Source: Schaalia odontolytica (lineage in GTDB: Bacteria > Actinomycetota > Actinomycetes > Actinomycetales > Actinomycetaceae). Taken from it: 32,000 nucleotides of DNA. This document shows, in pieces, positions 6,836-24,687 of this stretch; the stretch's first letter is position 1, and each line of letters begins with the position of its first letter. The notes beneath the pieces are model-generated. The model was not told where the DNA came from. It saw only the letters and a program-made list of their open reading frames with translations, and searched no databases. The position numbers and the translations under genes are program-made. The DNA lies in contig NZ_CP040006.1 in assembly GCF_005696695.1 (NCBI RefSeq), positions 390,001 to 422,000 on the forward strand, read 5' to 3'.

Positions 6836-6973
6836 CAGGTCTCCTCGCGCTGCGCGCGTACGTGTTCGATGCGACTGCACCCAGTGTAGCTGAGTGGACT
6901 TCCAAGTTTTAACCGACGGTTAGCCTCAGTGCATTACACTGGGCACTGTTGTTTCCCGACGATCGGAGGTTTC
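6836..6973. promoter_or_regulatory. Divergent intergenic region between eccC and the eccD-like gene, with candidate -10 elements and a 9-bp inverted repeat
   Basis: CCCAGTGTA (6880-6888) and TACACTGGG (6935-6943) form a 9-bp inverted repeat. This places TACACT (a TAnnnT -10-like hexamer) upstream of each divergent gene on its own strand. TGAGTGGACT at 6891-6900 recurs in the esx/eccD intergenic region. Confidence 0.3.
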
Positions 6974-8410: not shown

Positions 8411-9870
8411 TGGCTGATACTACGAAGACTCCTTTCGCCCATGCGCCCGCTTCGCGGCTCGTCGGCGCGTATCTCATCGACCTGCTGGTCCTCGGGGTCC
8501 TGCTTGGTGTGACGTGGTACGTGCACTTCACGGCGTGGACGATCGGAATGATCACTGCCGAGGCCGTGGTTGCCTCCGCGCTCATGCTCGGCGCGTCCGG
8601 CCGGACGCCGGGCATGGCCCTCATGCGCGTGTGCATGATCCGCGACGAGGAAGACGCGCAGACTCCGTCGCTCGGCGCGGCGCTGGGCTACACGGCCCTC
8701 GCTGTGCTCCTCCAGGTCACCGTCGTGGGCCTGCTCGCCTCGTATGCGATGGTCCACGATGGGCGTACGTGGCTGAGCGGCCCCACCCGTACCCGCTTTG
8801 TCGACCTGCGCAAGCATGCGGCGCTCGCGGCGGGCCCCGGTGAGGTCGAGCGCGCCGAGCGTCCGCACATGGCCCCCAGTGGTTTTGAGAGCGTGCATGA
8901 GGGGGTTGACCAGTGGAGCGCTCCCGCTGCGCCGTTGACGCCCGTGCCCTCCTCGGCGCCGGACTATTCCGCGCCCGGTCAGCGTGCGAACGACCCCTTT
9001 GGGACGGGTTACAGCGCTCCTGCGGTCCCGGCGGTCTCCCCGCTGCCTGCGGCCCCCGCCATGCCGGCGGCGCCCAGTGCGCCAGCCGTGCCCAGCACGC
9101 CTGCTGCGCCCGGACTGTCCGCTGCGCCTTCGGCTCCCGCTGTGCCCGCCGCGCGCGAGTCCAACGAGTTCGAGGCGCTCCTCGCGCCGCCACAGGGAAC
9201 GCCGGACACCCACCGCCCCGCGCCCCAGCGCCCCGCGACACCGTCCGTGCCCGCGGTACCTCCGGTGCCCAGCGTGCCCGCCTCGTCGACGCCTGCCGCG
9301 CCCGCGCAGGTTCCCGCCCAGGCCAGCTGGGGAGCTCCCGCTCAGCAGGTGCCCCCTCAGCCCGGCCAGGCCTCGTACAACGCAGGAGGGCAGTATGCGG
9401 CCCCCGCATCGGGTGTGCCCGGACCTCCGCCGAGCCGCCGCGACGTGCAGGCTGCGCAGCGCTCCGGCACCTCCCAGTGGGGTGGGGCCGGCCAGTCCCA
9501 GTGGGGTGCACCCGCGACGCCGCCGCGCACGCAGCTCCTGTGGCTCATCTTCGACTCCGGGCAGCGCGAGCTCATCGACATGCCGGTGACTCTTGGGCGT
9601 GCACCCGCAGCCGTCGAGGGCTCGCGTGCGGTCGTCGTGCCCGACGCGACGATGTCGCTCTCGCGCACGCACATGCGCCTGGGGCCCACGGCCACCGGTG
9701 CCTGGATCGAAGACTCCTTCTCCGCGAACGGCACGCAGATTCGTACGCCCGATGGCCGCGTCATGGAACTGACGGGCGGACAGGCGGTCGAGGTGCCTGC
9801 CGGTACCGAGGTCATCATGGGAGACCGGAGGGCCACGATCGTCTACGCCGACGCTGACTCGGTGCACTGA
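8410..9870 (+). CDS. Membrane protein with an N-terminal RDD domain, a ~220-aa Pro/Ala-rich linker and a C-terminal FHA domain
   Basis: The ATG at 8410 overlaps the TAA of the preceding gene (TAATG). RDD-like region: SRLVGAYLIDLLVLGVLLGV...GRTPGMALMRVCMIRDEED, with 3 hydrophobic segments. FHA signature: VTLGRAP...LSRTHMRL...SANGTQIRTPDG (GR, SRxH and NGT motifs). The track ORF start at 8263 lies inside the upstream gene and was rejected. Confidence 0.85.
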   Translation: MADTTKTPFAHAPASRLVGAYLIDLLVLGVLLGVTWYVHFTAWTIGMITAEAVVASALMLGASGRTPGMALMRVCMIRDEEDAQTPSLGAALGYTALAVLLQVTVVGLLASYAMVHDGRTWLSGPTRTRFVDLRKHAALAAGPGEVERAERPHMAPSGFESVHEGVDQWSAPAAPLTPVPSSAPDYSAPGQRANDPFGTGYSAPAVPAVSPLPAAPAMPAAPSAPAVPSTPAAPGLSAAPSAPAVPAARESNEFEALLAPPQGTPDTHRPAPQRPATPSVPAVPPVPSVPASSTPAAPAQVPAQASWGAPAQQVPPQPGQASYNAGGQYAAPASGVPGPPPSRRDVQAAQRSGTSQWGGAGQSQWGAPATPPRTQLLWLIFDSGQRELIDMPVTLGRAPAAVEGSRAVVVPDATMSLSRTHMRLGPTATGAWIEDSFSANGTQIRTPDGRVMELTGGQAVEVPAGTEVIMGDRRATIVYADADSVH

Positions 9871-10104: not shown

Positions 10105-10386
10105 TCAGAAGCGGGCAGCGTTGGACTGGTCCGTCGACTGGTAGTTGTCGCGAGCAGCATCAACGGCGGAGGAGGTGCGGGTCAGCACGTCCTTCAGGCC
10201 CTCAAGGCCCTGGTTCCACTGACGCTGAGCGGCGTCGTAGGCTTCCTGTGTCTTGCCTTCCCAATTCGAGCGCAGCCTGTTCAGCGTCTGCTCGAGGTCG
10301 TCGAGGCACTTCTGCAGGTTATCGGCACCGCCTTTGATGTCAGCGGCAGCGGCGTCAAGAGCGCCGTAACTTACCTGGAAATCCAT
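10105..10386 (-). CDS. esxB: WXG100 family protein carrying a C-terminal YxxxD secretion motif (CFP-10/EsxB-like)
   Basis: 93 aa. The WXG motif is WEG (RLRSNWEGKTQEAYDAAQRQW). The C-terminus is DNYQSTDQSNAARF, which contains Y-x-x-x-D. AGGAG lies upstream. The A versus B assignment is tentative. Confidence 0.85.
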   Translation of the reverse strand: MDFQVSYGALDAAAADIKGGADNLQKCLDDLEQTLNRLRSNWEGKTQEAYDAAQRQWNQGLEGLKDVLTRTSSAVDAARDNYQSTDQSNAARF

Positions 10387-10408: not shown

Positions 10409-10714
10409 TCACAGGCCGCCGAGCAGCTGGGAGAACGAGTTCTTGGTCTCGGACTCGTTGTCTGTCATCGACGAATCGGTGGCGCGCAGGTTATCAGCGA
10501 GATCCTGAAGAGCCTGGTTAACCTTTCTTACGTTCTCATCCCACTGATCCATCAGCGACTGGAACTGCACCGACGCCTCGCCCTGCCAGGAGCTGCCGAT
10601 GGTCGACAGGTCGCCCTTAAGACGCGTGGTGTGGCCGTCGATGTCGTTCTTGGTGGACTCAACCGCTGCGAAGCCCTCCTTTAGGGCACCTTCTGCGGCC
10701 CTCTGGTCTGCCAT
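10409..10714 (-). CDS. esxA: WXG100 family protein (ESAT-6/EsxA-like)
   Basis: I prefer the start at the ATG at 10714 (MADQRAAEGALKEGF...), with GGAGG 5 nt upstream. 101 aa. The WXG motif is WQG (IGSSWQGEASVQFQSLMDQW). The A versus B assignment is tentative. Confidence 0.85.
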   Translation of the reverse strand: MADQRAAEGALKEGFAAVESTKNDIDGHTTRLKGDLSTIGSSWQGEASVQFQSLMDQWDENVRKVNQALQDLADNLRATDSSMTDNESETKNSFSQLLGGL

Positions 10715-10909: not shown

Positions 10910-12271
10910 ATGGCATCGAAAACATCACGAGGAGTGGCGCTGATTCCGCTCACGATTACGTACGGCGTTGACCGTAGTGACGTGACGCTTCCGCAGTCGA
11001 TCCCCCTGGTGGAGCTGCTCCCTGGAATGGTTGAAACGGTGGGCGCTTTCACTGATCAGCCAACGAATGACGGCTTCGCGGTGCGTACGGCCTCGGGTCG
11101 TCTGCTCGATCAATCCAAGTCCCTGTCCGCCCAGGGAGTGCGCGCCGGCGCGGCGCTCACGCTCGAGCCTCTGGGTGAGGGCGCTGCCGATATGGTCTAT
11201 GACGACCTCACCGAAGCGGTCGGTCAAGTCGTCGAAAGGGTGTCCACTCCTTGGACACGTGAGGACGCTCGCACTCTTGCTGCACTCTCTGCGGCGGGCC
11301 TCGTCTTCGTCGCAGCCCTCCTCCTGGCCACCACTCCTCCGGACGCCCTCACCGCCCTCGATTCTCATTCCGTCACGAGGTACAACGTCATTGCCGGCGC
11401 AATCGGTATCGTCGCGGCGCTGCTCGTGACTGCGACGTCCGCCGTGATGACCCGGAAGTACCCGCAGGCGAGCGGCATCGCGCTGGCACACACCGTCCCC
11501 TTCCTGACGGCCGCATCGGCTCTGCGCCTGAGCCAGAGCCACTGGGACACCGCCGGCTGGGGGTGGACCGGCCTCGGCCTCCTGATCGGCTCCCTCGCCG
11601 TTCTCGCGCTGCCCAAGCGGTACAGAATCTCTATCGCGGCCCCTCTCGTCGTCGGTACGGTTTTGGCCGCGACCGGCCTCCTGGTTCGGCTCGGTCAGCT
11701 CTCTCAGGCGGGTATCTCCGCAATCCTCTTCGCCCTCGTGATTGTGCTTCTCCAGGTCGCGCCCTGGATCGCGCTGGCCCACATCCCCGTGCGCATCCTG
11801 GATGCGGACACGACTGAGCAGATTCCCGCGAAGGGCATCACCGACCAGGTCAGCACCTCCTTCGTGTTCGTCGTCGCTCTGCGCGCCGGCGGGGCAATCG
11901 CCGCTCTCTTCCTGGCCGTCGCCCTGATGACGGCACCCGAAACGCGGTCGATCTCCCTGCCGCTGACCCTCATCGTGCTCGGTGCGGTCTCCCTCGTTCT
12001 CCAGACGCGTTCCATCCGCGCTCGTGTTGAGGTGCTTCTCGGTGCTCTCACCGGCCTGATCGTGATTCTCGTGGCCACTGTGCTCGGCGCCTACGCGGAC
12101 CCGAGGACCATGCCGTGGCTGACGCTGTCGGCAATCGCGACCGCCCTCGTCCTCGTCATCACGAACGTCGTCGGGCCTCGTGCACGCCCGCACCTGACGC
12201 GCATCGCCGACACGATCTCGGTGCTGTCGCTGTTTGTTCTGCTTCCCCTGGCCGTCTACCTGTGGAGCTGA
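10910..12271 (+). CDS. eccD: Type VII secretion integral membrane protein EccD
   Basis: 453 aa. The N-terminal ubiquitin-like domain has the typical pattern (LTITYGVDRSDVTLPQSIPLVELLPGMVETVG...SGRLLDQSKSLSAQGVRAGAALTLEPL). About 11 TM helices follow. GGGAGG lies upstream of the ATG. Confidence 0.9.
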   Translation: MASKTSRGVALIPLTITYGVDRSDVTLPQSIPLVELLPGMVETVGAFTDQPTNDGFAVRTASGRLLDQSKSLSAQGVRAGAALTLEPLGEGAADMVYDDLTEAVGQVVERVSTPWTREDARTLAALSAAGLVFVAALLLATTPPDALTALDSHSVTRYNVIAGAIGIVAALLVTATSAVMTRKYPQASGIALAHTVPFLTAASALRLSQSHWDTAGWGWTGLGLLIGSLAVLALPKRYRISIAAPLVVGTVLAATGLLVRLGQLSQAGISAILFALVIVLLQVAPWIALAHIPVRILDADTTEQIPAKGITDQVSTSFVFVVALRAGGAIAALFLAVALMTAPETRSISLPLTLIVLGAVSLVLQTRSIRARVEVLLGALTGLIVILVATVLGAYADPRTMPWLTLSAIATALVLVITNVVGPRARPHLTRIADTISVLSLFVLLPLAVYLWS

Positions 12272-12274
12272 GCC

Positions 12275-13729
12275 ATGCCGTCGAGTAAAGACATCCTCGA
12301 AGCCCAGCGTTTTAATCGAAACCGCCTGATCACGGCCTTCACCTCCGGCACGCCCGACGGGCGCGAGGTCGACACGCCCTCGCCCGTGCGCCCCCTTATT
12401 TTCGGGCTCGTGGTCGCCGTTATTCTCAGCGTGGTGGGAATCGGCATGCGCGTTTTTGCGCCGAACCCGAAACTCGGGGAGGCGCAGTATCAGCTGGTTG
12501 ACGTCAAGGGGACGGGTGCCCGCTATTTCTGGGCAAACGGCGTCCTCCATCCCATCGCGAACGTGACCACCGCTAGGCTCCTCAGCCCCGAATCGAAGCT
12601 GACGACCATCCAGGCATCAGCGTCGTCACTCGAGAACATTCCGCGCGGCGCCCAGATCGGCCTGCCCGACGTCCCCGATGACGTGCCAGTACCCGACATG
12701 CTGAGTAAGCAGTGGCTCTCCTGCGACATGGAGTCCGGATACCACACGTGGATCGCCAAGGAACTGCCTGTGGCGAATTTTCCGGTGAAGCAGGCGACAT
12801 CCGCGCTCGTTCAGGCGACCGGCAGCGGAGACAAGTACTTCGTCGATCGGGAAAAAGGCAAGAAGTACTACATCGACTCCAGCGTAAGCCGCCTGGGTGA
12901 CTGGGCGCTGTCCTTCCAGAACCTCACCAGCTACCCGATCACCGTCGAACCCGAGTGGCTCGACCTCTTCCCTTCGGGCACGCCTCTGCGCCCCTGGAGC
13001 TACAACGACATTGAGAACGCGGGGCAGCCGGCCAAGAACCTGCCCGGTGACTTGAAGAACGAGGGCATCACCATCGGAATGGTCCTCGACCAGGTCGACT
13101 CCACCGGTCAGGTCAAAAACTCCTACCTGGTGATCGACGACTCGAATCTGGTGGTCTTCAACTCGACTGCGGCGCGCCTGTATCAGGACGCCCCGCCCTC
13201 GAAGAAGTTCCCCACCGAGATGTTCAAGTACGTCGAGCCCGTCCAGGCCGTCTTCGTCGGTGACGATTGGCCTGCCGTCGAGGACTTTGAATCGCCCGAG
13301 TGGTTCAACGAGAGCCGCGACGCGGCCAGCCGGACGGTCCTGTGCGCCGCGATGGACACCACTGATCGCGCTAATCCGACGTTCGACCTGGTCACCATGC
13401 CTGAAAAGCGTGCGATCGAAGCGTCCTACGATGCGGAATCTCTACAGTCCCCGAAGGGGCCGTCGACGACGCGCAACGTCACTGTCGCGGGCGGATCTGG
13501 CGCCCTCCTTGCCCTCACGTCCGGCGGTGGTGGCGAGGCCGCGTCCTACGTCTTCATCTCCGATATGGGCTTCCGCCACTCCCTCGGCGATGTCCCCTCC
13601 GTCTCCATGAATGCCCTCGGCTGGAGCGCCTCTGAGGCCGCGTCGGTCCCGCGCGCGTGGGGCGAGCTCATCCCGCCGGGTTCCGAGATGTCGCCGAAGG
13701 CCGCCGCCACCTCAGTGGGGATCAAGTGA
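12275..13729 (+). CDS. eccB: Type VII secretion protein EccB
   Basis: 484 aa. N-terminus KDILEAQRFNRNRLITAF, then a single TM (IFGLVVAVILSVVGIGM), then a large extracytoplasmic domain containing IPRGAQIGLPDVPDDVP. These match the EccB pattern. The gene starts 3 nt after the eccD stop. Confidence 0.9.
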   Translation: MPSSKDILEAQRFNRNRLITAFTSGTPDGREVDTPSPVRPLIFGLVVAVILSVVGIGMRVFAPNPKLGEAQYQLVDVKGTGARYFWANGVLHPIANVTTARLLSPESKLTTIQASASSLENIPRGAQIGLPDVPDDVPVPDMLSKQWLSCDMESGYHTWIAKELPVANFPVKQATSALVQATGSGDKYFVDREKGKKYYIDSSVSRLGDWALSFQNLTSYPITVEPEWLDLFPSGTPLRPWSYNDIENAGQPAKNLPGDLKNEGITIGMVLDQVDSTGQVKNSYLVIDDSNLVVFNSTAARLYQDAPPSKKFPTEMFKYVEPVQAVFVGDDWPAVEDFESPEWFNESRDAASRTVLCAAMDTTDRANPTFDLVTMPEKRAIEASYDAESLQSPKGPSTTRNVTVAGGSGALLALTSGGGGEAASYVFISDMGFRHSLGDVPSVSMNALGWSASEAASVPRAWGELIPPGSEMSPKAAATSVGIK

Positions 13730-15144
13730 GCGCCCGCCGCACGCGTTCCCGCTTCCTGGGCCGAGGCCTCGTCGGGGCCTCGCTGATCGCTGGACTCGCG
13801 CTCGTGCCGATTGCCGCACCGGTTGTCTCGCCTGATGACTCCGGTGCGTTCGGTCCTGGCGTCGCTCACGCTGACCCGGTGCCGACCCCGAGCGTGCGTC
13901 CGACTCCGACTGCGACTCCCTCGTCGTCGGCGACGACGCCCGCGAGCGAGTCCGAGGGCGGCGAATGCTCGCAAAACTCGCCCTCGTACATCAAGCAAGC
14001 ACCCGCCATCTTCGACGCCGTCGGGGTACGTCGAGCCTGGGAGGTCTCGCGAGGCCGTGGCGTCACGGTCGCGATCGTTGACTCGGGCGTCGCCGCTGGC
14101 AATCAGCACTTCCAGGGCCCGGACGGGTCCGTCGTGCTGCCCGGCATTGACCTGAGCGGTGAAAACACCGACGGGCGCGTCGACGTCGGCGAACACGGCA
14201 CGGCCATCGCCGGTGCGATCGCCGCGCAGGAGCTGCCTAAGGAGATGGGATCCGGCCTCGTCGGCGTCGCCCCCGAGGCGAAGATCCTCCCGGTGCGCGT
14301 TGACACCGGGCTTCAGGACAATCGCCCGCACAAGGAAGGCGAAGAGACCTTCATGTCGAAGGTGGGCCGCGGGATCCAGTGGGCCGCCGACCATGGCGCG
14401 CAGATCATCGTCGTCGCACAGTCTGCTCCCGAGGGGGACCCCCAGCTGGAGGCAGCCATTAACGCCGTGCGCGGCCGGGCCCTCGTCGTGGCATCGACCG
14501 GCAACGTGTACCAGGGACAGGAAGCGAATCAGGTCGTCTACCCGGCCGCCTACCCGGGTGTGCTCGGCGTGACCGCCTCGAATGCTGACGGATCGGCCTC
14601 GGACCAGCAGGTGCACGGCGCGCACGTCAAGCTCGCTGTTCCCGCCGGCGTCATCCTCACGACCTGGTTCGATCAGGCCGACTGCCTCGTCGGCGGATAC
14701 GAGGGGGACCAGCCCCTGCCGTCCTCGTCCTACGCGACCGCATACGCGGGCGGCTTCGCGGCCCTCGTGGCCTCGGCCTACCCCGATGAGGGGCCCGACA
14801 TGTGGAAATACCGGCTCGAAGTGACCGCCCTGCGCGGCACGCCCGATCAACGCACCGACGCCCTCGGCTGGGGTGTCGTCGCTCCCTTCGACGCCCTCAC
14901 CTTCACCGATATCGGCACCAGGTTCGGGCCGGAACACCCTAACGCCGCGGAACATCCCGCTCCCGCCCGACCGGCCGTGGCCTCGGCGGACTTGACCTCG
15001 CGCGATAACAACCTGACGATCCGCGCCTACATCGTGTCCGCGATCGCAGTCCTCGGGGCCTCGCTGATCGGAGGTCTCGTGATCCTCTCCCACCTGCGCG
15101 GTAGGCCCGCCGTGGTCGAAGACTCAGAAGAGGACTTGTCGTGA
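13726..15144 (+). CDS. mycP: Mycosin (membrane-anchored subtilisin-like S8 protease) MycP
   Basis: I prefer the start at the GTG at 13726, which overlaps the eccB stop (GTGA). There is a signal peptide (VSARRTRSRFLGRGLVGASLIAGLALVPIAAP). The catalytic motifs are VAIVDSGV (Asp), EHGTAIAG (His) and SSSYATAYAGG (Ser). The C-terminal TM anchor is AYIVSAIAVLGASLIGGLVILSHL. Confidence 0.9.
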   Translation: MSARRTRSRFLGRGLVGASLIAGLALVPIAAPVVSPDDSGAFGPGVAHADPVPTPSVRPTPTATPSSSATTPASESEGGECSQNSPSYIKQAPAIFDAVGVRRAWEVSRGRGVTVAIVDSGVAAGNQHFQGPDGSVVLPGIDLSGENTDGRVDVGEHGTAIAGAIAAQELPKEMGSGLVGVAPEAKILPVRVDTGLQDNRPHKEGEETFMSKVGRGIQWAADHGAQIIVVAQSAPEGDPQLEAAINAVRGRALVVASTGNVYQGQEANQVVYPAAYPGVLGVTASNADGSASDQQVHGAHVKLAVPAGVILTTWFDQADCLVGGYEGDQPLPSSSYATAYAGGFAALVASAYPDEGPDMWKYRLEVTALRGTPDQRTDALGWGVVAPFDALTFTDIGTRFGPEHPNAAEHPAPARPAVASADLTSRDNNLTIRAYIVSAIAVLGASLIGGLVILSHLRGRPAVVEDSEEDLS

Positions 15145-16328
15145 CCACCTGGGTGTCGCGGCGCTGGGCAAAGAGCGTGGGCGTCCTCGCCAGCGCACTC
15201 GCGCTCAGCCTCGGCGCGAGCCTCACCCCCGTTGCGCCGGCTTACGCCGCCGACCCGCCGGTGACCGCTGACAAGCAGGACTACTACAAGTACTACAAGC
15301 TCAAGTCCATCCACGATCAGGGAATCACAGGCAAGGGCGTCACCATCGCGGTCCTGGACGGCGCCGTGAACCCGAACATTCCCGAACTCAGGGGCGCGAA
15401 CATTCAGGATCGGATGCCCTGCGTCAAGGACTCGGCCCCAGAGAATGCGGCACACGGCACCACGGTCGCGCAGATCCTGGTCTCGCCCGAGTTTGGTGTT
15501 GCGCCGGACGCGACGCTCTACACCTATACACTCCCCCTTCATGGTGATGCGTCGAACTGCACGCTCTCCGGCTGGACGGGGGAAGCAGAAAACGACACGC
15601 CTCTCCTCATCGAGCAAGCGATCAACGACGGCGCCAACATCATCACCATCTCCAGTAACTTTGGCGATAATTCCATCGACCTTCGATGGGCCATGGCCAG
15701 GGCCATGGCCGCGGGAGTCATCGTCGTGGCCGCGATGGGCAACGAGACTACCGAGGACCCCGATGATGCGCTGGCTATCTGGACGGGAATCTGCGGCATC
15801 GGAGCAACGCTGCATGATGGCAGCCTGACGGAGTACACGAACTGGGGCAACGGGTTGTTGACGACCGCCCTGGGAACAGTCGTGACGCGTGACACCTCGA
15901 CCGGTCGTGTCGAGGAAGCTGACGGAACGTCCTTTGCGACCCCGATTATCGCCGGCTTTTTGGCGCTCGGCTGGCAGCACTTCGACGAGGACGTGAGCGC
16001 AGGTCAGATGCTTCAAGCGCTGGCTGCAACGGGGAGAAGCGGAAACGAGTGGAACAAGTTCACCGGCTACGGCCCCGCCGACCCGATCGCGTTCCTCCGG
16101 TCAGACCCGTCGCAGTATACGGACGAGAATCCGTGCGTTCCGCAGGACAACAGGTCTTTGCCAACGAGGGATGATGTCATCGACTACATGGACGGCGTCG
16201 TCAACCCCATTCTGATTCGTAATGATGATGTCTACGTCTACCGCGGCGTGAACGAAGAGGCTGCCCTCAGCCGCGAACACGGCTACCCGACACACATCGG
16301 CACCAGCCCCCGGTACCACAGTCAGTGA
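15141..16328 (+). CDS. Secreted S8 subtilase, mycosin-adjacent paralogue 1, no C-terminal TM anchor
   Basis: The GTG at 15141 overlaps the mycP stop (GTGA). The signal peptide ends ...PVAPAYA. Triad motifs are IAVLDGAV, AAHGTTVAQ and DGTSFATP. The C-terminal tail is NDDVYVYRGVNEEAALSREHGYPTHIGTSPRYHSQ. Confidence 0.85.
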   Translation: MTTWVSRRWAKSVGVLASALALSLGASLTPVAPAYAADPPVTADKQDYYKYYKLKSIHDQGITGKGVTIAVLDGAVNPNIPELRGANIQDRMPCVKDSAPENAAHGTTVAQILVSPEFGVAPDATLYTYTLPLHGDASNCTLSGWTGEAENDTPLLIEQAINDGANIITISSNFGDNSIDLRWAMARAMAAGVIVVAAMGNETTEDPDDALAIWTGICGIGATLHDGSLTEYTNWGNGLLTTALGTVVTRDTSTGRVEEADGTSFATPIIAGFLALGWQHFDEDVSAGQMLQALAATGRSGNEWNKFTGYGPADPIAFLRSDPSQYTDENPCVPQDNRSLPTRDDVIDYMDGVVNPILIRNDDVYVYRGVNEEAALSREHGYPTHIGTSPRYHSQ

Positions 16329-16389
16329 CGGGCCTCGGCTTTCCTGCGAGCCCGAGTGCCTGAGCGCCCGAACGAAAGGAACAGACACA

Positions 16390-17607
16390 ATGATGCGGTC
16401 GGCCGGTCGGTCCCGAGGCCTGCGTGCCCTCTCCGTTCTGGCATCGGCCTGTGCCCTGGCCCTGACGGCCGTGCTCTCGCCCGTCGCCCCTGCTGCCCCT
16501 GCGACAGCGGTGGATCGAGAGCTTACGGCAGCTGACCAGGCCTACTATTCGCGCTACAACCTGGAGGCGCTGCGCGCCCAGGGGTACACGGGCGAGGGCG
16601 TGATTATCGCGGTCATCGACGGGCGTATTGACACGTCCATTCCCGAGCTGCAGGGTGCGGACATCGTCGACAAGAGTACGTGCGACGTAGGAGCCGACGC
16701 CGAGCAGGACGAGCATGCGACGTTCATTGCGCAGCTCCTGGTCGCCCCGGCCTTCGGCGTTGCGCCGAAGGCCACCATCTATAACTATCGGAATGCCCTA
16801 AGCGTTAATCAGGGTAGCGACGACTGCACAACGGTATGGAATCTCCCGACGGGACGAGCCCGTACGGAATACCTCATCGAACAGGCGATCAACGACGGTG
16901 CTGACATTATCGCGATCTCCTCCAGCTACGCGGATTCTCACAATTCATCGATGCGCTGGGCTATTTCTCGCGCGACTGTGACGGGTGTTCCAATCGTTGC
17001 ATCCGTCGGTAACGACAGCGAGTACAACCCCGATGACGAACTGGGTATGTGGGGAGGAGTCATCGGTGTCGCTGCGCTCGAGCAGGATGGCACCGTTGCC
17101 GACTACTCGAACTATGGAGACGGGGTAACACTCGCGGCGATTGGTGAAATCAATGGGCGTTCGTCAATCGACGGTAAGCTCTACAAGACAAGCGGAACAT
17201 CGTACGCTTCGCCCATGGTTGCTGGTTTCCTGGCCCTCGCGTGGCAGCGTTTTGGTGGTGGTGAGGTGAGCGTGTACCAGGTTCTTCAGGCCGTGCTGGC
17301 GACCGCGTGGGGGACGAATGGGCAGTGGAACGAGCGCACGGGTTACGGTGAGATCAACCCGGCGGCTTTGCTGGCCGCCGATCCGTCGCAGTACTCGGAG
17401 GAGAATCCGCTGCTGGAGAAGGGCAGTCGCTTTGCCTTCCATGAGGATGACGTCTACGACTACTACTACGGGCTGGCGAATCCGCGCGAGGTCCTGAACG
17501 ACGACTGGTACGTGTACCGTGGTGTGGATGAGGAGGGTGCTCTGTCCGAAGGGCAGGGGTACGAGGTTCACCTGGGGACGAGCCCGCTCTATCACAACCA
17601 GGGATGA
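16390..17607 (+). CDS. Secreted S8 subtilase, paralogue 2, no C-terminal TM anchor
   Basis: Signal peptide MMRSAGRSRGLRALSVLASACALALTAVLSPVAPAAPATA. Motifs are IAVIDGRI, DEHATFIAQ and SGTSYASP. The tail is NDDWYVYRGVDEEGALSEGQGYEVHLGTSPLYHNQG. AAGGAA lies upstream. Confidence 0.85.
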   Translation: MMRSAGRSRGLRALSVLASACALALTAVLSPVAPAAPATAVDRELTAADQAYYSRYNLEALRAQGYTGEGVIIAVIDGRIDTSIPELQGADIVDKSTCDVGADAEQDEHATFIAQLLVAPAFGVAPKATIYNYRNALSVNQGSDDCTTVWNLPTGRARTEYLIEQAINDGADIIAISSSYADSHNSSMRWAISRATVTGVPIVASVGNDSEYNPDDELGMWGGVIGVAALEQDGTVADYSNYGDGVTLAAIGEINGRSSIDGKLYKTSGTSYASPMVAGFLALAWQRFGGGEVSVYQVLQAVLATAWGTNGQWNERTGYGEINPAALLAADPSQYSEENPLLEKGSRFAFHEDDVYDYYYGLANPREVLNDDWYVYRGVDEEGALSEGQGYEVHLGTSPLYHNQG

Positions 17608-17673
17608 GCGGGCCGTGAGCCGCGACGCCCTCGCGAATGTTGAAACGCCTCGATGAAAGGAATAGACAAGACG

Positions 17674-18879
17674 ATGCGATCGATTGGTCGATCCCGAGGC
17701 CTGCGTGCCCTCTCCGTTATGGCCTCGGCCTGCGCGCTGGCCCTGACGGCCGTGCTCTCGCCCGTCGCTCCCGCTGCCCCCGCAGAGGCGGTGGATCGCA
17801 AGGTGACAGCGGCGGATGAGGCGTACTATTCGCGCTACAACCTTGCGTCCTTGCATGCGCAGGGGAAGAGGGGGGATGGAGTCATCATCGCGCTCATTGA
17901 TGGTCGCGTCGATACGTCGATTCCGGAGTTGCAAGGGGCTGATATTCAAGACAAGACCCCGTGTCAGGTCACGCCCGATGCGGAGTCGAACGATCATGCG
18001 ACATTTCTCGCTCAGCTTCTGGTCGCCCCGGACTTCGGAGTCGCTCCCGGTGCGACACTCTACAGCTACGCCCAGGCGGGTTCGACGAGAGAAGCGGGCG
18101 GAGACTGCAACCTAGGGGCGCGTTCAACAGCCTATGCAGATCAATCCGTGCTGATTGAACAGGCCTTGAATGACGGCGTGGACATCATCTCGATCTCTTC
18201 CAACTATGCGTCCAGGGACAGCGAATCATTGAAATGGGCAGTTGCACGCGCTGCCGTCGACGGCGTGCCAATTGTTGGTTCGATGGGTAATGACGGAGAG
18301 CGTAATCGCACGGATCGCGTGGGGGCCTGGGGTTCGGTTGTTGGTGTTGGGGCACTTGAAACTGATGGGCGCTATGCGGACTACTCAAACTACGGTGATG
18401 GGGTCTCCATCGCCGCAGTGGGAGAGATGATTGCGCGTCAGGCCAGCACCAATAAAATCGTGACAACAGCGGGTACTTCGAACTCCGCACCTTTGGTTGC
18501 GGGAGTGCTAGCCCTGGCGTGGTCCGACTTTGATGACGGAGTGACGGGGTATCAGATTCTGCAGGCGCTGGTTGCGACCGCGAGCGGGTCGGGTGGCAAA
18601 TGGAACGATCGGACCGGTTATGGCGAGGTTGATCCAGCGGCCCTGTTGGCGTCTGATCCGTCGCGGTATCCAGACGAGAACCCCTTCGAAGAGAAGCAGG
18701 GTGATTCCGTCGTGACTCCGGATGATATCGATGATTACGACGATGGGCTCGTCAACCCGAGCTCCGTTTATAACGACGACACGTATGTGTACCGGGGCCT
18801 CGATGAGCAGGTGGTGACTTCGGGCGCGTCCGGTTACCCGGCTCACCTTGGTACGAGCCCCCGCTACCACGCGCAGTGA
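17674..18879 (+). CDS. Secreted S8 subtilase, paralogue 3, no C-terminal TM anchor
   Basis: Track ORF 17653..18879. I trimmed the start to the ATG at 17674 (MRSIGRSRGLRAL...) by alignment with paralogue 2 and the upstream GAAAGGAA. Motifs are IALIDGRV, NDHATFLAQ and AGTSNSAP. The tail is NDDTYVYRGLDEQVVTSGASGYPAHLGTSPRYHAQ. Confidence 0.85.
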   Translation: MRSIGRSRGLRALSVMASACALALTAVLSPVAPAAPAEAVDRKVTAADEAYYSRYNLASLHAQGKRGDGVIIALIDGRVDTSIPELQGADIQDKTPCQVTPDAESNDHATFLAQLLVAPDFGVAPGATLYSYAQAGSTREAGGDCNLGARSTAYADQSVLIEQALNDGVDIISISSNYASRDSESLKWAVARAAVDGVPIVGSMGNDGERNRTDRVGAWGSVVGVGALETDGRYADYSNYGDGVSIAAVGEMIARQASTNKIVTTAGTSNSAPLVAGVLALAWSDFDDGVTGYQILQALVATASGSGGKWNDRTGYGEVDPAALLASDPSRYPDENPFEEKQGDSVVTPDDIDDYDDGLVNPSSVYNDDTYVYRGLDEQVVTSGASGYPAHLGTSPRYHAQ

Positions 18880-19013
18880 ATGATTCCCATGAGCGAGCAA
18901 TCACTCGCAAATACTGAACGTATTGGTGACTTCCGGTCGCCATAGAGGCGGTCTTACCGTCTCGGTACATGAAGTGGTGCACGTGCGCCAAGGAACTCAG
19001 TTAGGATAACCGT

Positions 19014-19409
19014 ATGGTAGAGACGATGGGGAGCACCCCCGAAGAAGTAAGGCAGACTATCCGGGCTCAGATGGAAGCCGCTGAAAAGCGTGCCGAGAAT
19101 GCCCGTGAACTCGTCGAGATTCTCAAGACAGCGAAGACGCGTGGCGTCGACGCTCAGGGCGACGTTGAGGTCGAAATCGACTCGGACGGTCGACTCGTGA
19201 AGCTGTCGATCGATGATGACGCGCTCCAGGGAAGTGCGCGTGAACTCGAGGACTCGATCATGGAGGCCTACGCCGACGCCGGTCGCAACATGCGTGACTA
19301 CGTGCGCATGCAGACCACCCAGCGGTTCGGCGAGGACGGTGGCTCGCTCGGCGGCTACCTCGAGACTATTTCCTCGAACCTTGGTTCCCTCGGAGCGGGT
19401 CAGCGATGA
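19014..19409 (+). CDS. YbaB/EbfC-fold protein (EspL-like ESX-associated protein)
   Basis: 131 aa. It has an N-terminal helix (EEVRQTIRAQMEAAEKRAENARELVEILKTAKTRG), then GDVEVEIDSDGRLVKLSIDDDAL....LEDSIMEAYADA. This is the YbaB-like pattern. AGGA lies upstream. Confidence 0.65.
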   Translation: MVETMGSTPEEVRQTIRAQMEAAEKRAENARELVEILKTAKTRGVDAQGDVEVEIDSDGRLVKLSIDDDALQGSARELEDSIMEAYADAGRNMRDYVRMQTTQRFGEDGGSLGGYLETISSNLGSLGAGQR

Positions 19410-20740
19410 GCGCGGATCTTGGCGTCAATACAGAAGTAATCCGTGATCATGCGACCACGGTGAGTGACTGTGCGTCGACCCTCGACGAGAGCGTGGGCGT
19501 CGCCAACTCGACGAAGGGCCAGGTCAACGGCAACGCCTTCGGCCTGATCTGTTCCTTCTTCGTTTCCCCGGTCAATGAGCAGATCACGAACCTCACGAAG
19601 ATGATCTCGGACTGCTCCGCAGCCGAGAAGCGTCTTGTCAACTGCCTGCTCCAGTGGGCGCAGGAGATGGACGATCTTGAGCAAGACATCGTTGGGGATC
19701 TGCAGAAAATCCAAGGCGCCGTGGGCACATACACTAAGCCTATTGGCAACGGCGGCGACGGCGGAAACGGCGGTGCCGGTGGCGCTGGCGGTGCCGGTGG
19801 TGCCGGTGGCGCTGGTGGAGCTGGCGGTGCCGGTGGAGCTGGCGGTGCCGGTGGAGCTGGCGGATATGGCGGCGGCGGAGGTGGCGGCGGCTTCGGCGGC
19901 GGAGGCGGCTACGGTGGTGGCGGCGGCTTCGGCGGCGGAGGCGGCACCGGCGGTGGTGGCGGCTTCGGTGGTGGCGGCGGCTACGGTGGTGGCGGCGGCC
20001 TGGGCGGCCTCAGCGGACAGTCCACAATGCCCTCCCTCTCACACAACCCCGGCCTCGGTGATGACTCCGCAAAGGACGGTAAGGACGGGCACGACGGTAA
20101 GGACGGGCAGGACGGCAAGGATGGTAAGGAAGGCAAGGACGGCCAGTCCGGTAACTCCTTCGACAGCCTCCTCGGCGGCCACGACAAGCTCAACGCCGAC
20201 GACGACGAACTGCGTCGCTTCCTCGAGAAGCAGCGCGACGACGAAAACACCGATCTTGCCGAGTTCTACGAGCGCCAGAAGGAAGACCAGAACGAGGCGC
20301 TCGCGCGCTACGCTGAGGCGCACCCCGGTGAGGACATCTCCGAGGTCAAGAGCCTCATCGAGTCCAACCAGCAGGAGCAGCAGGACGCGATGACGGACTT
20401 CCTGTCGCGCCAGCGCACCGAAGAAGAAACCCAGATCCGCCAGTACGTGAAGGACAACCCGCAGGCAACGTCCCGCGAGTTCGACGCCTTCATGTCGAAG
20501 CAGCGCAACGACCAGCAGGCCAGCTACCGCAGCTTCGTCGAGGAGCAGGAGAAGGCTCAGTCCTCCCGTATCGAAGAGTTCTCGAAGGCTCACCCCGATA
20601 CGAAGACGGACGACGTGCGTTCGCTGTTCGACCGGCAGGATGACCACGGCGATAAGGACATCGAAACGTTCCTGTATCGTCAGCGCCAGGATGAAGAACG
20701 CACGCTGCGTCGCTTCCTGTTTGAAGGAGTTCAGAAGTGA
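19406..20740 (+). CDS. Mosaic putative T7SS substrate: EspC/DUF2580-like N-terminal domain, poly-Gly tract, collagen-like GXY run and acidic helical repeats
   Basis: The ATG overlaps the upstream stop (ATGA). The N-terminus MSADLGVNTEVIRDHATTVSDCASTLDES...GNAFGLICSFFVSPV resembles the 'type VII secretion target' AYGLLCxF motif. Next come GGAGGAGGAGG... and GGGGG[YF] repeats. Then KDGKDGHDGKDGQDGKDGKEGKDGQSG. Then about 7 repeats of the type FLEKQRDDENTDLAEF or FLSRQRTEEETQIRQY. Confidence 0.7.
   Translation: MSADLGVNTEVIRDHATTVSDCASTLDESVGVANSTKGQVNGNAFGLICSFFVSPVNEQITNLTKMISDCSAAEKRLVNCLLQWAQEMDDLEQDIVGDLQKIQGAVGTYTKPIGNGGDGGNGGAGGAGGAGGAGGAGGAGGAGGAGGAGGAGGYGGGGGGGGFGGGGGYGGGGGFGGGGGTGGGGGFGGGGGYGGGGGLGGLSGQSTMPSLSHNPGLGDDSAKDGKDGHDGKDGQDGKDGKEGKDGQSGNSFDSLLGGHDKLNADDDELRRFLEKQRDDENTDLAEFYERQKEDQNEALARYAEAHPGEDISEVKSLIESNQQEQQDAMTDFLSRQRTEEETQIRQYVKDNPQATSREFDAFMSKQRNDQQASYRSFVEEQEKAQSSRIEEFSKAHPDTKTDDVRSLFDRQDDHGDKDIETFLYRQRQDEERTLRRFLFEGVQK
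19745..20016 (+). repeat. GGN-codon microsatellite-like tract (9-bp and about 18-bp sub-periods) encoding the poly-Gly region
   Basis: The DNA reads GGCGGTGCCGGTGGCGCTGGCGGTGCCGGTGGTGCCGGTGGCGCTGGTGGAGCTGGCGGTGCCGGTGGAGCT..., followed by GGCGGCGGAGGCGGCTACGGTGGTGGCGGCGGCTTC-type units. Confidence 0.8.
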
Positions 20741-21957
20741 GCGTCGAATCCCCCGAATTCACACCGAGTATCGACAACACCACCCCGACCGAGGGCCTGG
20801 GTATCGTCGACGAGCTGTACAACGTCGCCCAGGACCTGCGCGCCGGCGAGGTGAACAACCTCGTCGATTCAGCGAAGGCAATTTACGAGGAAGCAGCCGG
20901 GCTCGCCGTTGACCCTATCGGTGGTCTCGTCGGTATGGGCGTCGAGTGGATCTTGCAGCACATCGATCCCCTCAAGACCTGGGTGAACCAGCTGACCGGC
21001 GACTCGGCTCAGGTGTACGGCATGAGCTCCAGCTGGGACTCCATCTCGAGCTCCCTCGCCTCCGTTGCTGAAGAGCTGCAGTCCACCGCACAGGCCGCGA
21101 TGTCCGGCATGCACGGCGAAGCAGTGCGCGCGTACCTGGAGCGCCAGGCCGTCGTCACCAGTGCGATCGACGGCGTCTCTGCTGCGTCTGGTGCCTTCGG
21201 CGAGGCGCTCACGAAGGTGGCAGACTCCGTCGACAGCATCCATGACGCCGTCGTGGGCGCCATCGGCGATATCGTTGGCAGCTGTGTTTCCGCAGCGGCC
21301 GAGGTAATCTTCACCGCTGGTCTTGCAGCTCCCGCCGCCGAAGCGCAGGTTGCCAGTAAGGTCGCCAAGTGGGTCGGACTCATCGGCCCTGTCCTGGATG
21401 TCCTCATGGAAGCCGTTCAGGCCATCATGGCGATCTACGCCGTCATGACCTCGGTCGGCGAGAACCTGACCCGCGGCGTCGAGCACATCGGCGAGCAGTG
21501 CCAGGCCCCCGGCGGCGGCTGCTGCGGCGAGGGACACAGCAAGGGCGGCGAGGGCTACGAGCTGCGCGACGGAAGAAACGTGTACGTCGACGGCGATAAC
21601 AACGGCACCATCGTGAACGGTGACGTCAATATCGAGGAAGACAATCACACGGAGATCAACCCCAGTATCGAGCTCAGCCCCGAAATCAATATCGAGCACG
21701 AGCACGAAGAGCACCACCACCACGGTAAGCACGACGGGGGCGACGACTCTTCGCACGACAAATCGCACGGTCGCAAGGCACCGCACGAGCAGCAGCACAA
21801 CGGCGCTAGTGAGCGCGGAACTCGCCCGCGCAAACAGCACGGAGGCAACCACGACAGCGGAAACGATGGGAATCACCATCGTCACAAGGGTGGCAGCAGC
21901 CACGATGGCAGTGGACACCGCCCTCGTCGCCCCCACCATCATCGCCGGCCTCACTGA
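20737..21957 (+). CDS. Putative large T7SS substrate: WXG100-like/T7SS-signal-type N-terminal domain, hydrophobic helices and a Cys- and His-rich C-terminal tail
   Basis: The GTG at 20737 overlaps the upstream stop (GTGA), with GAAGGAG 7 nt upstream. The N-terminus is VDPIGGLVGMGVEWILQHIDPLKTWVNQLTGDSAQVYGMSSSWDSISSSL...MHGEAVRAYLERQ. This matches the G-x-G-W-L-x-x-H-x-x-P-L...L-x-G-D...W...G-x-A-x-x-A-Y pattern of large actinobacterial WXG-like substrates. The hydrophobic stretch is WVGLIGPVLDVLMEAVQAIMAIYAVMTSVG. The tail has 22 His in the last ~86 aa (HEHEEHHHHGKH...RPHHHRRPH). Confidence 0.7.
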   Translation: MSVESPEFTPSIDNTTPTEGLGIVDELYNVAQDLRAGEVNNLVDSAKAIYEEAAGLAVDPIGGLVGMGVEWILQHIDPLKTWVNQLTGDSAQVYGMSSSWDSISSSLASVAEELQSTAQAAMSGMHGEAVRAYLERQAVVTSAIDGVSAASGAFGEALTKVADSVDSIHDAVVGAIGDIVGSCVSAAAEVIFTAGLAAPAAEAQVASKVAKWVGLIGPVLDVLMEAVQAIMAIYAVMTSVGENLTRGVEHIGEQCQAPGGGCCGEGHSKGGEGYELRDGRNVYVDGDNNGTIVNGDVNIEEDNHTEINPSIELSPEINIEHEHEEHHHHGKHDGGDDSSHDKSHGRKAPHEQQHNGASERGTRPRKQHGGNHDSGNDGNHHRHKGGSSHDGSGHRPRRPHHHRRPH

Positions 21958-22081
21958 TCGGACGCTCCGGTCCTCTGGTGACCGACGGTGCCCTGCGCGC
22001 CGACGGGAGCCAGAGGCCGGGGATGCGCTCTGCCTCGCCGCATGAGCGTGAACGGCCTCGGCCTCGTCCTCACGTGACGAT

Positions 22082-22119
22082 AGGAGGGCCCCGCACAGAT
22101 CACTGTGTGGGGCCCTCCT
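22082..22119. terminator. Bidirectional hairpin between the convergent T7SS cargo operon and trkA
   Basis: AGGAGGGCCCCGCACA, then gatcac, then TGTGTGGGGCCCTCCT. This is a 16-bp stem with one G-U pair. There is no U-tract. Confidence 0.55.
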
Positions 22120-22132
22120 GCGTAAAGACCGC

Positions 22133-22810
22133 CTACGGCCTATTCGCGAAGTACTCCAGCAGATGCGAGTCGCCCGACACGATGATCTCGTCGTCAGCAT
22201 TAATGCGCGTTGACGAGTCCGCGTATTCGAAGCGCTGCTTGGGACGGCGGATTGCCAGCACGTTCACGCCGTAGCGGCCGCGCAGGTCGAGTTCCTCGAG
22301 GGAGAAGCCGCGCACCTCCTGGGGCGGGCGCAACTTCATGATGGAGAAGCCATCCTTCTCCATCTCGATGTAGTCGACCATGCGCCCACCCACCAGGTGC
22401 GCTGTACGCTTGCCTGCGTCCAGGTCTGGGTAGACGACATGGTGGGCACCCACGCGGCGGAGGATGCGGCCATGCTGAGAAGACGTCGCCTTCACCCAGA
22501 TCGAAGAAATACCCATGTCAACCAGGTTTGCGGTGATGAGCACCGCCGCCTCCAGCGAGGAACCCACGCCGACAACGGCACTACGGAACTCCCGCGCCCC
22601 GAGCTGCTCGAGCGCATCCTTGGACGTCGCATCCGCCTCGACGAGCGGGAATCGACCCGCGAAAGCCTGCACGCGGGCGGGGTTCTTTTCGACGGCCAGG
22701 ATCTCGTAGCCCAGCTGGTCCTGCGTCACCGCGACGGCGGAGCCGAAACGGCCCAGCCCGATGACGAGCGTTCCCGACTGGAGTTCCTTTGACTCGCGTT
22801 CATCTGCCAT
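22133..22810 (-). CDS. trkA: Potassium uptake protein TrkA/KtrA (RCK, NAD-binding)
   Basis: Rossmann motif LVIGLGRFGSAVA, followed by an RCK_C-like C-terminus (FSLEELDLRGRYGVNVLAIRR...DDEIIVSGD). I prefer the start at the ATG at 22810 (MADERESK) over the TTG at 22840; the choice is uncertain. Confidence 0.9.
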   Translation of the reverse strand: MADERESKELQSGTLVIGLGRFGSAVAVTQDQLGYEILAVEKNPARVQAFAGRFPLVEADATSKDALEQLGAREFRSAVVGVGSSLEAAVLITANLVDMGISSIWVKATSSQHGRILRRVGAHHVVYPDLDAGKRTAHLVGGRMVDYIEMEKDGFSIMKLRPPQEVRGFSLEELDLRGRYGVNVLAIRRPKQRFEYADSSTRINADDEIIVSGDSHLLEYFANRP

Positions 22811-23580: not shown

Positions 23581-24639
23581 TCAGTTTCCCTTCTTGGTTC
23601 GGATGGCTACCAGAACCTGGGCGACGACCTCGTCGATGACGCGAAGATCCGACCATCGGACACGAATGACTGCCCACCCGTCGCGTTCAAGGTCGCGCTG
23701 CCGACGCTGCTCGGCCTCAATGCTGTCGTGGACTTCATCGACCGTGTCCCCGTACTTGATGCGACCATCGAACTCGATAGCTATCTTCAGGTTGGGCAGC
23801 GCAATATCGATGAAGTACGTGTGGCCGGCTACGTGGACCTCTTCTTGAGTCGTTATTCCTTCGATCCCCGCGCGCAGCAAGGCAAGCAACACGAGGGCCT
23901 CGCCAGGAGACTCGCATCCAGCGTCGGCACGGTCAATGACCCATCGGGCTTGCTTGCGCCCGACGGTGTTGAGGGGAGTGTTAGCCAATGCCTCGTGGAA
24001 CTCTTTGCGTGCCTCCTCCTGGCGGACACGCGACTCATCCTGACGAAAACGGTCGAAGTGGCACGCGTGGGCCAACCCCGCGCAGGCGATGGGAAACCTG
24101 TGCTTGTCGGCCAACAGGCGGGCGCAGTCAACGACAACTCGCGCCGGTGTGGCGATCTGGAAGCCCAAGTAGTTGATTGAGGGAACTGGCGATCGGGGGC
24201 GAGAAACGGTCGTTGTCACTGCCGAAAAACGTTCATTCTTCTCAACTGTGATTGCTGGAAAATGAATCTGGCGTGGGCATTCTCGAGATGGCGCATACAG
24301 TGTGAGCTTCTCGATCTGGTCGTCGGTGGGGAGGTCGAGAAGGTAAGCGGCGACGCCGCCGCTGATGACGTAATTGGGATATCGCAGACTCAGAGCGCAT
24401 AACCGGGCAATGAAAACCGCTGTTTTGCGCTCCCGTGAGTGCAGTCCAATCAACTGTGCTGAAGGGATATAAATGCCGGTAAGGAGACGAATGAATTCTC
24501 CTTTCTGCACGCGCCTATGGATGCGTTCACTAGCTGCATGCGAGTCGGCAATGACTAGGGATGCACGGATGGATGCCACCCGGTCGCGCAGCAAAGCAGC
24601 ATCTTCGTTGTGCGCATGCGCGCCTCGTTGTTGGTCCAT
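23581..24639 (-). CDS. DUF559 (Vsr/restriction-endonuclease-like fold) protein with an AbiEi-like N-terminal region
   Basis: The C-terminus GHTYFIDIALPNLKIAIEFDGRIKYGD...EQRRQRDLERDGWAVIRVRWSDL matches the DUF559 pattern (xxEFDGxxH/Y...R...L...GWxVxRxxxxD). Start candidates are the ATG at 24639 and the TTG at 24675, neither with a good RBS. By eye the GC content is lower than in neighbouring genes. Confidence 0.7.
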   Translation of the reverse strand: MDQQRGAHAHNEDAALLRDRVASIRASLVIADSHAASERIHRRVQKGEFIRLLTGIYIPSAQLIGLHSRERKTAVFIARLCALSLRYPNYVISGGVAAYLLDLPTDDQIEKLTLYAPSRECPRQIHFPAITVEKNERFSAVTTTVSRPRSPVPSINYLGFQIATPARVVVDCARLLADKHRFPIACAGLAHACHFDRFRQDESRVRQEEARKEFHEALANTPLNTVGRKQARWVIDRADAGCESPGEALVLLALLRAGIEGITTQEEVHVAGHTYFIDIALPNLKIAIEFDGRIKYGDTVDEVHDSIEAEQRRQRDLERDGWAVIRVRWSDLRVIDEVVAQVLVAIRTKKGN

Positions 24640-24687
24640 GAGTCCAACTGTGTGACGACTGGAGTGCGCCTTCAAGCTCTCTGTGTG

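Follow-up and report, generated by a model that had tools for sequence, protein, structure and literature searches.

In Schaalia odontolytica, Saccharibacteria are restricted by the Esx (type VII secretion) system (bioRxiv preprint, September 2026, PMC13622651), which has just been shown in this genus to be an anti-epibiont defence, with one effector pair, AesA and AesB, characterised. These two proteins pair as a heterodimer by way of their helical N-terminal domains, need each other for export through Esx and have been likened to LXG-Lap complexes; AesB comprises an FXG helical N-domain, a variable, glycine-rich disordered region of ~160 amino acids (aa) and a charged tail of 56 residues with a functional GYNVP/GYVNP motif, and an N-proximal Asp has been noted for AesA (PMC13622651). 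Work on cultivated Saccharibacteria has its founding model host in Actinomyces (now Schaalia) odontolyticus XH001 (LLVT00000000), on which the epibiont TM7x lives (PMC4742689). In mycobacteria, EspL, which has a YbaB-type domain, post-transcriptionally stabilises EspE and EspF, the latter a paralogue of EspC (PMC6319747). Here we consider a gene at one end of an Esx/type VII cluster, open reading frame (ORF) 19406–20740, in 32,000 nucleotides (nt) of S. odontolytica DNA (RefSeq assembly GCF_005696695.1, contig NZ_CP040006.1, positions 390,001–422,000 of the forward strand; ‘the window’, in whose coordinates positions are given). Its product is a putative EspC-family type VII substrate ending in an orphan domain that appears restricted to one clade; the head family and the Esx cluster setting were known, and it is the combination of such a substrate with such a domain that, judged by sequence, is new.

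The ORF begins with ATG, lies 9 nt downstream of a GGAG sequence and specifies 444 aa, exactly as a sequence-only reading of this DNA had delimited it. Neither a signal peptide nor a transmembrane segment was predicted from the protein sequence. The window was assigned to contig LLVT01000001.1 of assembly GCA_001462375.1, from strain XH001. In all, 12 contigs from independent assemblies, an isolate genome among them, encode exactly this protein, and the repeat-rich ORF is therefore not an assembly artefact; moreover, the frame was kept from head to C-terminus in eight orthologues. Comparison of these sequences resolves the protein into three evolutionary units, head, spacer and C-terminal domain, laid out as follows.

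19406–20740, + strand: whole ORF, 444 aa, stop codon included
19406–19741, + strand: head, residues 1–112
19742–20158, + strand: hypervariable, low-complexity spacer, predicted to be disordered and made up of the next three features
19742–20020, + strand: glycine-rich run, residues 113–205, 73% Gly, (GGA)10 followed by ~8 GGGGG[YFT] units
20021–20077, + strand: short linker between the glycine-rich run and the G-X-Y run
20078–20158, + strand: G-X-Y run GKDGHDGKDGQDGKDGKEGKDGQSGNS, residues 225–251, nine triplets of GKD/GHD/GQD type
20159–20737, + strand: acidic C-terminal domain, residues 252–444, 193 aa, net charge −19

Likeness to AesA–AesB lies both in the setting, an Esx cluster of the same species group with small and large partner genes side by side, and in the layout of AesB, in which a helical export domain is likewise followed by a hypervariable glycine-rich region and a conserved charged C-terminus. 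However, the C-terminus of AesB is 56 aa long and disordered, whereas that of the present protein has 193 aa and is predicted to be folded, and the extension is carried here by the small, EspC-like partner rather than by the large one. The combination of modules, which had seemed unfamiliar when read from sequence alone, is thus less unprecedented than it appeared, AesB having been described in 2026 in the same species; an AesB orthologue is encoded within the same window.

EspC and EspF, of ESX-1, are stand-alone proteins of ~100 aa. The present head scores above the EspC gathering threshold and is likewise a predicted helical hairpin of ~100 aa, and its gene adjoins those of a larger helical protein and a YbaB-domain protein in a type VII cluster, as is the case for EspC/EspF with EspA/EspE and EspL. 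It differs in having 340 extra residues (the disordered spacer and the orphan domain) and in belonging to a monoderm oral species of the Actinomycetaceae rather than to a mycobacterium, and no EspD/EspH-like gene was seen. PE_PGRS proteins, of ESX-5, have a helical export head followed by long GGA/GGN glycine repeats, whose GC-rich tandem DNA is unstable. The present protein, too, has a type VII helical head of ~100 aa followed by GGA-type repeats in tandem DNA, but neither Pfam nor NCBIfam finds a PE domain in it (Pfam reports EspC only), its glycine tract is much shorter and is followed by a conserved helical C-terminal domain, and it comes from another taxon. With the LXG-Lap pairs of type VIIb systems in Firmicutes it shares the order of the genes, a small helical protein being encoded upstream of a larger one whose helical N-domain has an L-x-G turn; unlike in those pairs, the larger partner has no recognisable toxin domain, no immunity gene was seen, the small protein carries its own putative cargo domain, and the machine is actinobacterial and type VIIa-like (EccB, EccD, mycosin).

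The C-terminal domain

Orthologues were collected by a scan of reference genomes and from metagenome contigs, giving eight full-length and several truncated sequences. Across the eight, the C-terminal domain has exactly 193 aa, with zero insertions or deletions (indels), and 76–99% identity, at synonymous divergence (dS) of up to about 0.8–1.3. The ratio of non-synonymous to synonymous change (dN/dS) is 0.06–0.31 and, whichever pair is compared, lower than the value for the head; purifying selection acts on both conserved modules. The region follows a strict 15-residue period of ~12 units, in which positions 1, 2 and 13 are aromatic or hydrophobic and position 5 is Gln, and every hydrophobic ‘knot’ residue, together with the Q-R/K dipeptides at positions 5–6, is invariant among orthologues. 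Ungapped self-matches at offsets of 15, 30, 45, 60 and 90 residues scored 95–134, whereas the best of 200 shuffles reached 57, and the power of the hydrophobicity signal stood at z = 10.7 for a period of 3.75 and z = 14.2 for a period of 15, peaks falling solely at harmonics of 15 and none at 3.5 or 3.6. The domain is very polar (25% Asp+Glu, 10% Gln, 28% AILMFVWY), with a net charge of −13 to −19 among orthologues.

AlphaFold2 modelling of the domain, from an alignment of three sequences (all structure models used here rest on two or three), gave a mean predicted local distance difference test (pLDDT) score of 85 and a predicted template-modelling (pTM) score of 0.78. Four helices were recovered, as they were when the full-length protein was modelled.

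20201–20320, + strand: predicted helix 1, residues 266–305
20339–20455, + strand: predicted helix 2, residues 312–350
20471–20590, + strand: predicted helix 3, residues 356–395
20606–20725, + strand: predicted helix 4, residues 401–440

The helices are joined by the turns AHPGED, DNPQAT and AHPDTK, spaced by 45 residues and containing the only Pro residues of the domain, and each helix holds three h-x-x-Ar-h knots (h, hydrophobic; Ar, aromatic) separated by purely polar stretches. Self-identity reaches 29% at offset 90, compared with 12–17% at offset 15, and the domain is therefore read as an old duplication of a 90-aa hairpin, in which the 15-residue pattern is a structural sub-period. These models thus predict with confidence four helices of ~40 residues forming a duplicated 90-aa hairpin. 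The repetition that the sequence-only reading had described as about seven acidic helical units of 15–16 residues was borne out as far above chance, but the units are ~12 and strictly of 15 residues, and in place of about seven helical repeats the analysis finds a domain of fixed length with four long predicted helices.

No significant match to the domain was found in Pfam or NCBIfam, PDB searches, run both with one sequence and with a profile of the family, gave nothing meaningful, and the model had no Foldseek match with E <1 in PDB and BFVD. A HMMER search of 1.84 billion representatives returned the same narrow family, along with proteins sharing a Y-[IV]-x-x-N-P-x-A-T helix cap. A match of the repeat to a well-characterised family, which would have told against the sequence-only reading, was thus not found. 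The nearest approach was a sub-threshold similarity to the mycobacterial haemophore MHB domain (PF16525, 18.5 bits against a cut-off of 27.4; TIGR04529, 24.3 against 32), whose recurrent part is confined to Ar-x-x-x-[HN]-P helix caps (Y302...H306-P, Y347...N351-P, F392...H396-P) and probably reflects a shared helix-capping motif. A haem-binding MHB domain was set aside as unlikely on account of these scores, below both curated cut-offs, and of PDB searches free of haemophore matches. The two-hairpin topology would be compatible with a fused tandem WXG100 dimer, but this is no more than an idea, there being neither a Pfam WXG100 signal nor a Foldseek WXG100 match. Right-handed pentadecad coiled coils and bundles have the 15-residue hydrophobic period (3.75 per turn) that is found here; the domain differs from them in having one compact knot per 15 residues, with Gln or charged residues at the other would-be core positions, and neither Foldseek nor the PDB profile search found a sequence or fold match to pentadecad proteins.

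Head, spacer and family distribution

Scored alone, the head matches PF10824 (T7SS_ESX_EspC) with 26.0 bits (E = 1.3e-5; gathering score 23.5), and the heads of nine of ten orthologues also match the family, whereas the whole protein reaches 22.3 bits, lowered by effects of length and composition. AlphaFold2 assigns helices to residues 9–40 and 44–109, a helix-turn-helix hairpin, with the modest confidence expected of a head modelled without its partner. In the full-length model, the nearest solved folds are the EsxA/EsxB-type WXG100 hairpins 4lws, 2vrz and 3fav (Foldseek probability 0.87–0.95, target-normalised TM score 0.65–0.75, root-mean-square deviation 2.3–3.5 Å, E-values >1). The EspC-like character first proposed for the head is thereby supported. 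It is not a WXG100 protein in the strict sense: the hairpin turn has an invariant A-F-G (19535–19543) instead of W-x-G, and PF06013 was matched weakly by three of ten heads (best E = 0.0014). Asp4 is also invariant in the orthologue columns; identity among the heads is 40–95%. An indexed search of the head family for alternative C-terminal cargos, as a polymorphic effector would have, returned solely close, truncated relatives.

Between head and C-terminal domain, constraint gives way to variability. The spacer is 68–270 aa long in orthologues and shifts in composition between lineages, variants being built from GGA/GGGGG[YF], GGGGSSS, PPSGGV, GSGHD pentamers or G[KHS]D triplets; in the glycine-rich DNA, Tandem Repeats Finder detects periods of 18, 27 and 36 nt (scores 133–198). 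Residues 105–259 have pLDDT <50 in AlphaFold2, and the spacer has no Pfam match even at E ≤ 10, Collagen (PF01391) included. Because of this low pLDDT, the lack of a Pfam match and the variability among orthologues, the glycine runs and the G-X-Y run are best described as a single spacer, predicted to be disordered and prone to slippage, and not as a collagen stalk; (GGA)n, GGGGG[YF] and G-X-Y runs, previously counted as separate modules of a four-module protein, are strain-specific forms of it. A G-X-Y run is indeed present, with nine triplets rather than the eight first counted, but it is missing from one clade of orthologues (L008/P0003/L002), and in three others (L005–L007) its register is broken by GSGHD pentamers, leaving a longest unbroken run of 16 among up to 37 triplets. 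With nine triplets here, 0–37 in orthologues and these breaks in register, the protein does not belong with the bacterial collagen-like proteins of Scl type. The collagen-like module of the sequence-only reading was given up on these grounds, and a conserved collagen-like stalk was rejected along with it.

Assemblies of the gene systematically break or go wrong at its glycine-rich repeat. One contig has a 10-N scaffold gap in it (L001, 7136–8283) and another long-read frameshifts (L002, 10001–11251), two contigs stop inside the repeat (L009, L010), and P0014–P0021 are truncated ‘EspC-like’ gene calls of 91–130 aa. Since the repeat breaks assemblies in this way, the family is badly under-represented in protein databases and mis-annotated there as small stand-alone proteins.

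All orthologues come from Schaalia, Pauljensenia or oral ‘Actinomyces’. Two matches were found in 5.8 billion clusters and five strong ones among the 1.84 billion representatives, low counts that are due in part to clustering and to assembly breaks in the glycine repeat; the downstream partner protein, by comparison, is represented by 92 database clusters, all Schaalia-type, 60–98% identical and 390–480 aa long. On these sequence counts, the family appears to be taxonomically narrow rather than rare.

Adjoining genes and competing explanations

The genes immediately upstream and downstream overlap the ORF at either end.

19014–19409, + strand: YbaB/EbfC-like gene, 131 aa (PF02575, E = 2.5e-10)
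20737–21957, + strand: partner gene, 406 aa (weak match to PF25547, WXG100_2, E = 0.006)

The stop codon of the YbaB-like gene and the start codon of the ORF share 4 nt, ATGA, an overlap also present in gene calls on four other contigs; the GTG start of the partner, with GAAGGAG upstream, overlaps the stop codon of the ORF (GTGA), and this overlap recurs in other contigs and orthologous loci. The gene is thus, by its sequence, apparently translationally coupled to both neighbours. A scan of 18700–22300 for promoters and terminators gave nothing informative. The partner has a conserved helical N-domain of ~257 aa with an invariant L-T-G/L-A-G turn (L-T-G here, 20992–21000) and hydrophobic helices at residues 179–197 and 213–240. 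Directly after this domain comes an invariant Cys motif, C-x-x-P-G-G-G-C-C-G (21499–21528), and then a hypervariable His/Gly/Lys-rich tail, His-rich here (HEHEEHHHH... from 21697) and (GGNHNGDHK)n or Lys/Pro-rich in other strains. Neutralisation of a cationic tail on the partner by the acidic C-terminal domain was considered and rejected: the tails are mostly net negative unless His is protonated, and they are inconsistent from clade to clade.

We favour, as probable with considerable room for doubt, the explanation that the protein is an Esx substrate composed of an export head, a disordered spacer and a folded C-terminal cargo, and paired with the downstream protein. The EspC-type hairpin would be the export handle, most likely pairing with the LXG-like helical N-domain of the partner into a multi-helix bundle recognised by EccC, and the upstream protein, a candidate chaperone of EspL type by analogy, would be its cytosolic stabiliser; the order YbaB-like, EspC-like, large helical substrate has precedent in the stabilisation of EspF and EspE by EspL (PMC6319747). 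The glycine-rich stretch, G-X-Y run included, would act as a disordered spacer that keeps its overall character while its sequence and length drift fast through slippage in tandem DNA repeats. The acidic four-helix domain would be the functional cargo, most likely a binding module held off the head by the spacer. Because the Esx cluster is the one that restricts Saccharibacteria epibionts, the most likely role would be that of a second secreted or surface-exposed factor in the host–epibiont interaction.

In the Schaalia preprint, two in-cluster genes, OBNOAD_00337 and OBNOAD_00338, are candidate substrates on the basis of AlphaFold3 and Foldseek (F0309; PMC13622651), and genes 00329–00338 are induced by the epibiont (PMC13622651). 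Several points weigh against the favoured explanation. The gene and its partner can be equated with this pair by gene order only; 00337 and 00338 were not detected in the secretome and are uncharacterised, the EccC-dependent proteins of that secretome being only EsxA, EsxB, AesA and AesB (PMC13622651). The canonical WxG and YxxxD/E motifs are absent from the protein, and no activity can be read from its sequence. As for the predicted fold, the model of the C-terminal domain comes from a three-sequence alignment and AlphaFold tends towards idealised helices; only ~20% of the positions are hydrophobic, and the packing into a bundle is backed by the pTM value alone.

An explanation that is unlikely but deserves serious consideration reverses the roles of the pair, the EspC-like protein being a mere targeting factor or co-secretion adaptor, as AesA and Lap are, with the partner as the real effector and the C-terminal domain as an accessory (for solubility, as a plug or as a timer). 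A small hairpin head encoded upstream of a larger LXG-like protein is what AesA–AesB and Lap-LXG pairs show, the invariant Asp4 recalls the N-proximal Asp of AesA, and the two hydrophobic helices and invariant Cys motif of the partner could carry an activity. However, no other part of the pair is as conserved as the C-terminal 193 aa, judged by identity, absence of indels and dN/dS relative to the head, which would be unexpected of a dispensable accessory; known targeting factors have ~100–150 aa and no folded cargo, and the partner itself ends in a hypervariable tail of low complexity. Distinctly less probable is that the C-terminal region is a charged, helix-prone disordered region with short Ar-h-x-x-Q-R motifs, resembling the AesB tail and over-predicted by AlphaFold. 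The very polar composition, the three-sequence alignment and the failure of Foldseek to find a bundle with a good TM score would all fit this, as would the invariant Q-R/K dipeptide, given the precedent in AesB of a conserved motif inside a disordered region. Disorder would nevertheless be atypical of a region that has accumulated zero indels over 193 aa at such synonymous divergence, and it accounts poorly for Pro confined to three positions 45 residues apart, a hydrophobic period of exactly 3.75 with all knot residues invariant, the pTM of 0.78 and the return of the same four helices in the full-length run.

The G-X-Y run raises the further idea of a surface fibril, in which heads would polymerise, as reported for mycobacterial EspC, and a G-X-Y triple helix would project the C-terminal domain. 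Membership of the head in the EspC family and the 37 triplets reached in L005–L007 speak for it, as does the similarity of GKD/GQD to charged triplets found in the collagen-like proteins of streptococci. The nine triplets here, their absence from a whole clade, the broken register where they are most numerous, the want of a Pfam Collagen match, the disorder of the modelled region and the lack of any evidence for trimerisation make a fibril very improbable. That the ORF is an artefact, whether a mis-assembled repeat, a two-gene fusion or a decaying pseudogene, can be practically dismissed: glycine repeats do break assemblies, as in the cases above (L001, L002, L009, L010 and P0014–P0021), but the product is identical on 12 independent contigs and in one frame in eight orthologues, both conserved modules are under purifying selection and the coupling to both neighbours is conserved. 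The favoured explanation can also be carried further, to the speculative and rather unlikely proposal that the 193-aa pentadecad domain of four helices represents a new class of functional module delivered by Esx, whether as another effector against epibionts or as a binding or decoy domain tethered to the surface, borne on a rapidly evolving glycine-rich tether and acting on TM7x or on the host envelope during attack, the hypervariability of the spacer then reflecting an arms race.

The gene and its partner form the other substrate-like pair of the cluster and, unlike AesB, the substrate proposed here ends in a conserved domain that is predicted to be folded, and as such amenable to expression, structure solution and use as bait. 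If it is secreted, the cargo repertoire of actinobacterial type VII systems would extend past toxins and disordered tails, and the protein would exemplify an EspC-type ‘adaptor’ with its own cargo and offer a concrete handle on host action against epibionts; if not, it would still illustrate cleanly an orphan domain that is confined to one clade and built on an unusual helical plan of 15 residues.

The surrounding Esx cluster

The type VII secretion setting recognised from sequence is confirmed, EccC, EsxA/B, EccD, EccB and a mycosin being encoded within the same 18 kb, with AesA and AesB orthologues at the other end of the window from the ORF.

1540 to beyond the window start, − strand: AesB orthologue, full length in L016 (6001–8283)
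2125–1568, − strand: AesA orthologue, 185 aa
2723–2181, − strand: lipoprotein-like gene, between the AesA/AesB orthologues and eccC
2789–6880, − strand: EccC
10105–10386 and 10409–10714, − strand: EsxA/EsxB pair
10910–12271, + strand: EccD
12275–13729, + strand: EccB
13657–15144, + strand: mycosin, 495 aa, with C-terminal membrane anchor (TIGR03921, 214 bits)
15141–18879, + strand: three further secreted S8 proteases, 395–408 aa, with signal peptide only

In full length (L016), the AesB orthologue has 565 aa, with FQG at residues 52–54, a Gly/Ala/Ser-rich region at ~330–509 and a charged tail of 56 aa in which GYVNP occurs at 535. The possibility that the EspC-like protein is itself AesB was rejected, FXG and GYVNP/GYNVP being absent from it and the true orthologue being this separate gene at the window start.

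The three further S8 proteases have 47–63% identity to one another and ~25% to the mycosin, and share a ‘YVYRG...GYPxHLGTSPRYHxQ’ C-terminal ending. Just past the window start (L016, 8262–12042) come a Ser/Thr kinase gene and another three S8 genes; seven S8 proteases around one Esx cluster are unusual. Two other genes of the cluster, situated between eccC and esxAB, had no Pfam match at E ≤ 1e-3. The product of 8263–9870 (+ strand, 535 aa) combines three transmembrane segments with a long stretch rich in Pro and Ala and an FHA-looking C-terminus; from these features it may correspond to the EsrG2-type output protein with a ‘divergent FHA’ that the 2026 preprint links to Esx; that of 6929–8410 (+ strand, 493 aa), with ~10 transmembrane segments and a ubiquitin-like-looking N-terminus, is possibly a second EccD-like component. 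Elsewhere in the window, between trkA and trkH, an ORF of 352–364 aa (23581–24675, − strand) has a weak match to Pfam MTES_1575 in precomputed annotations.

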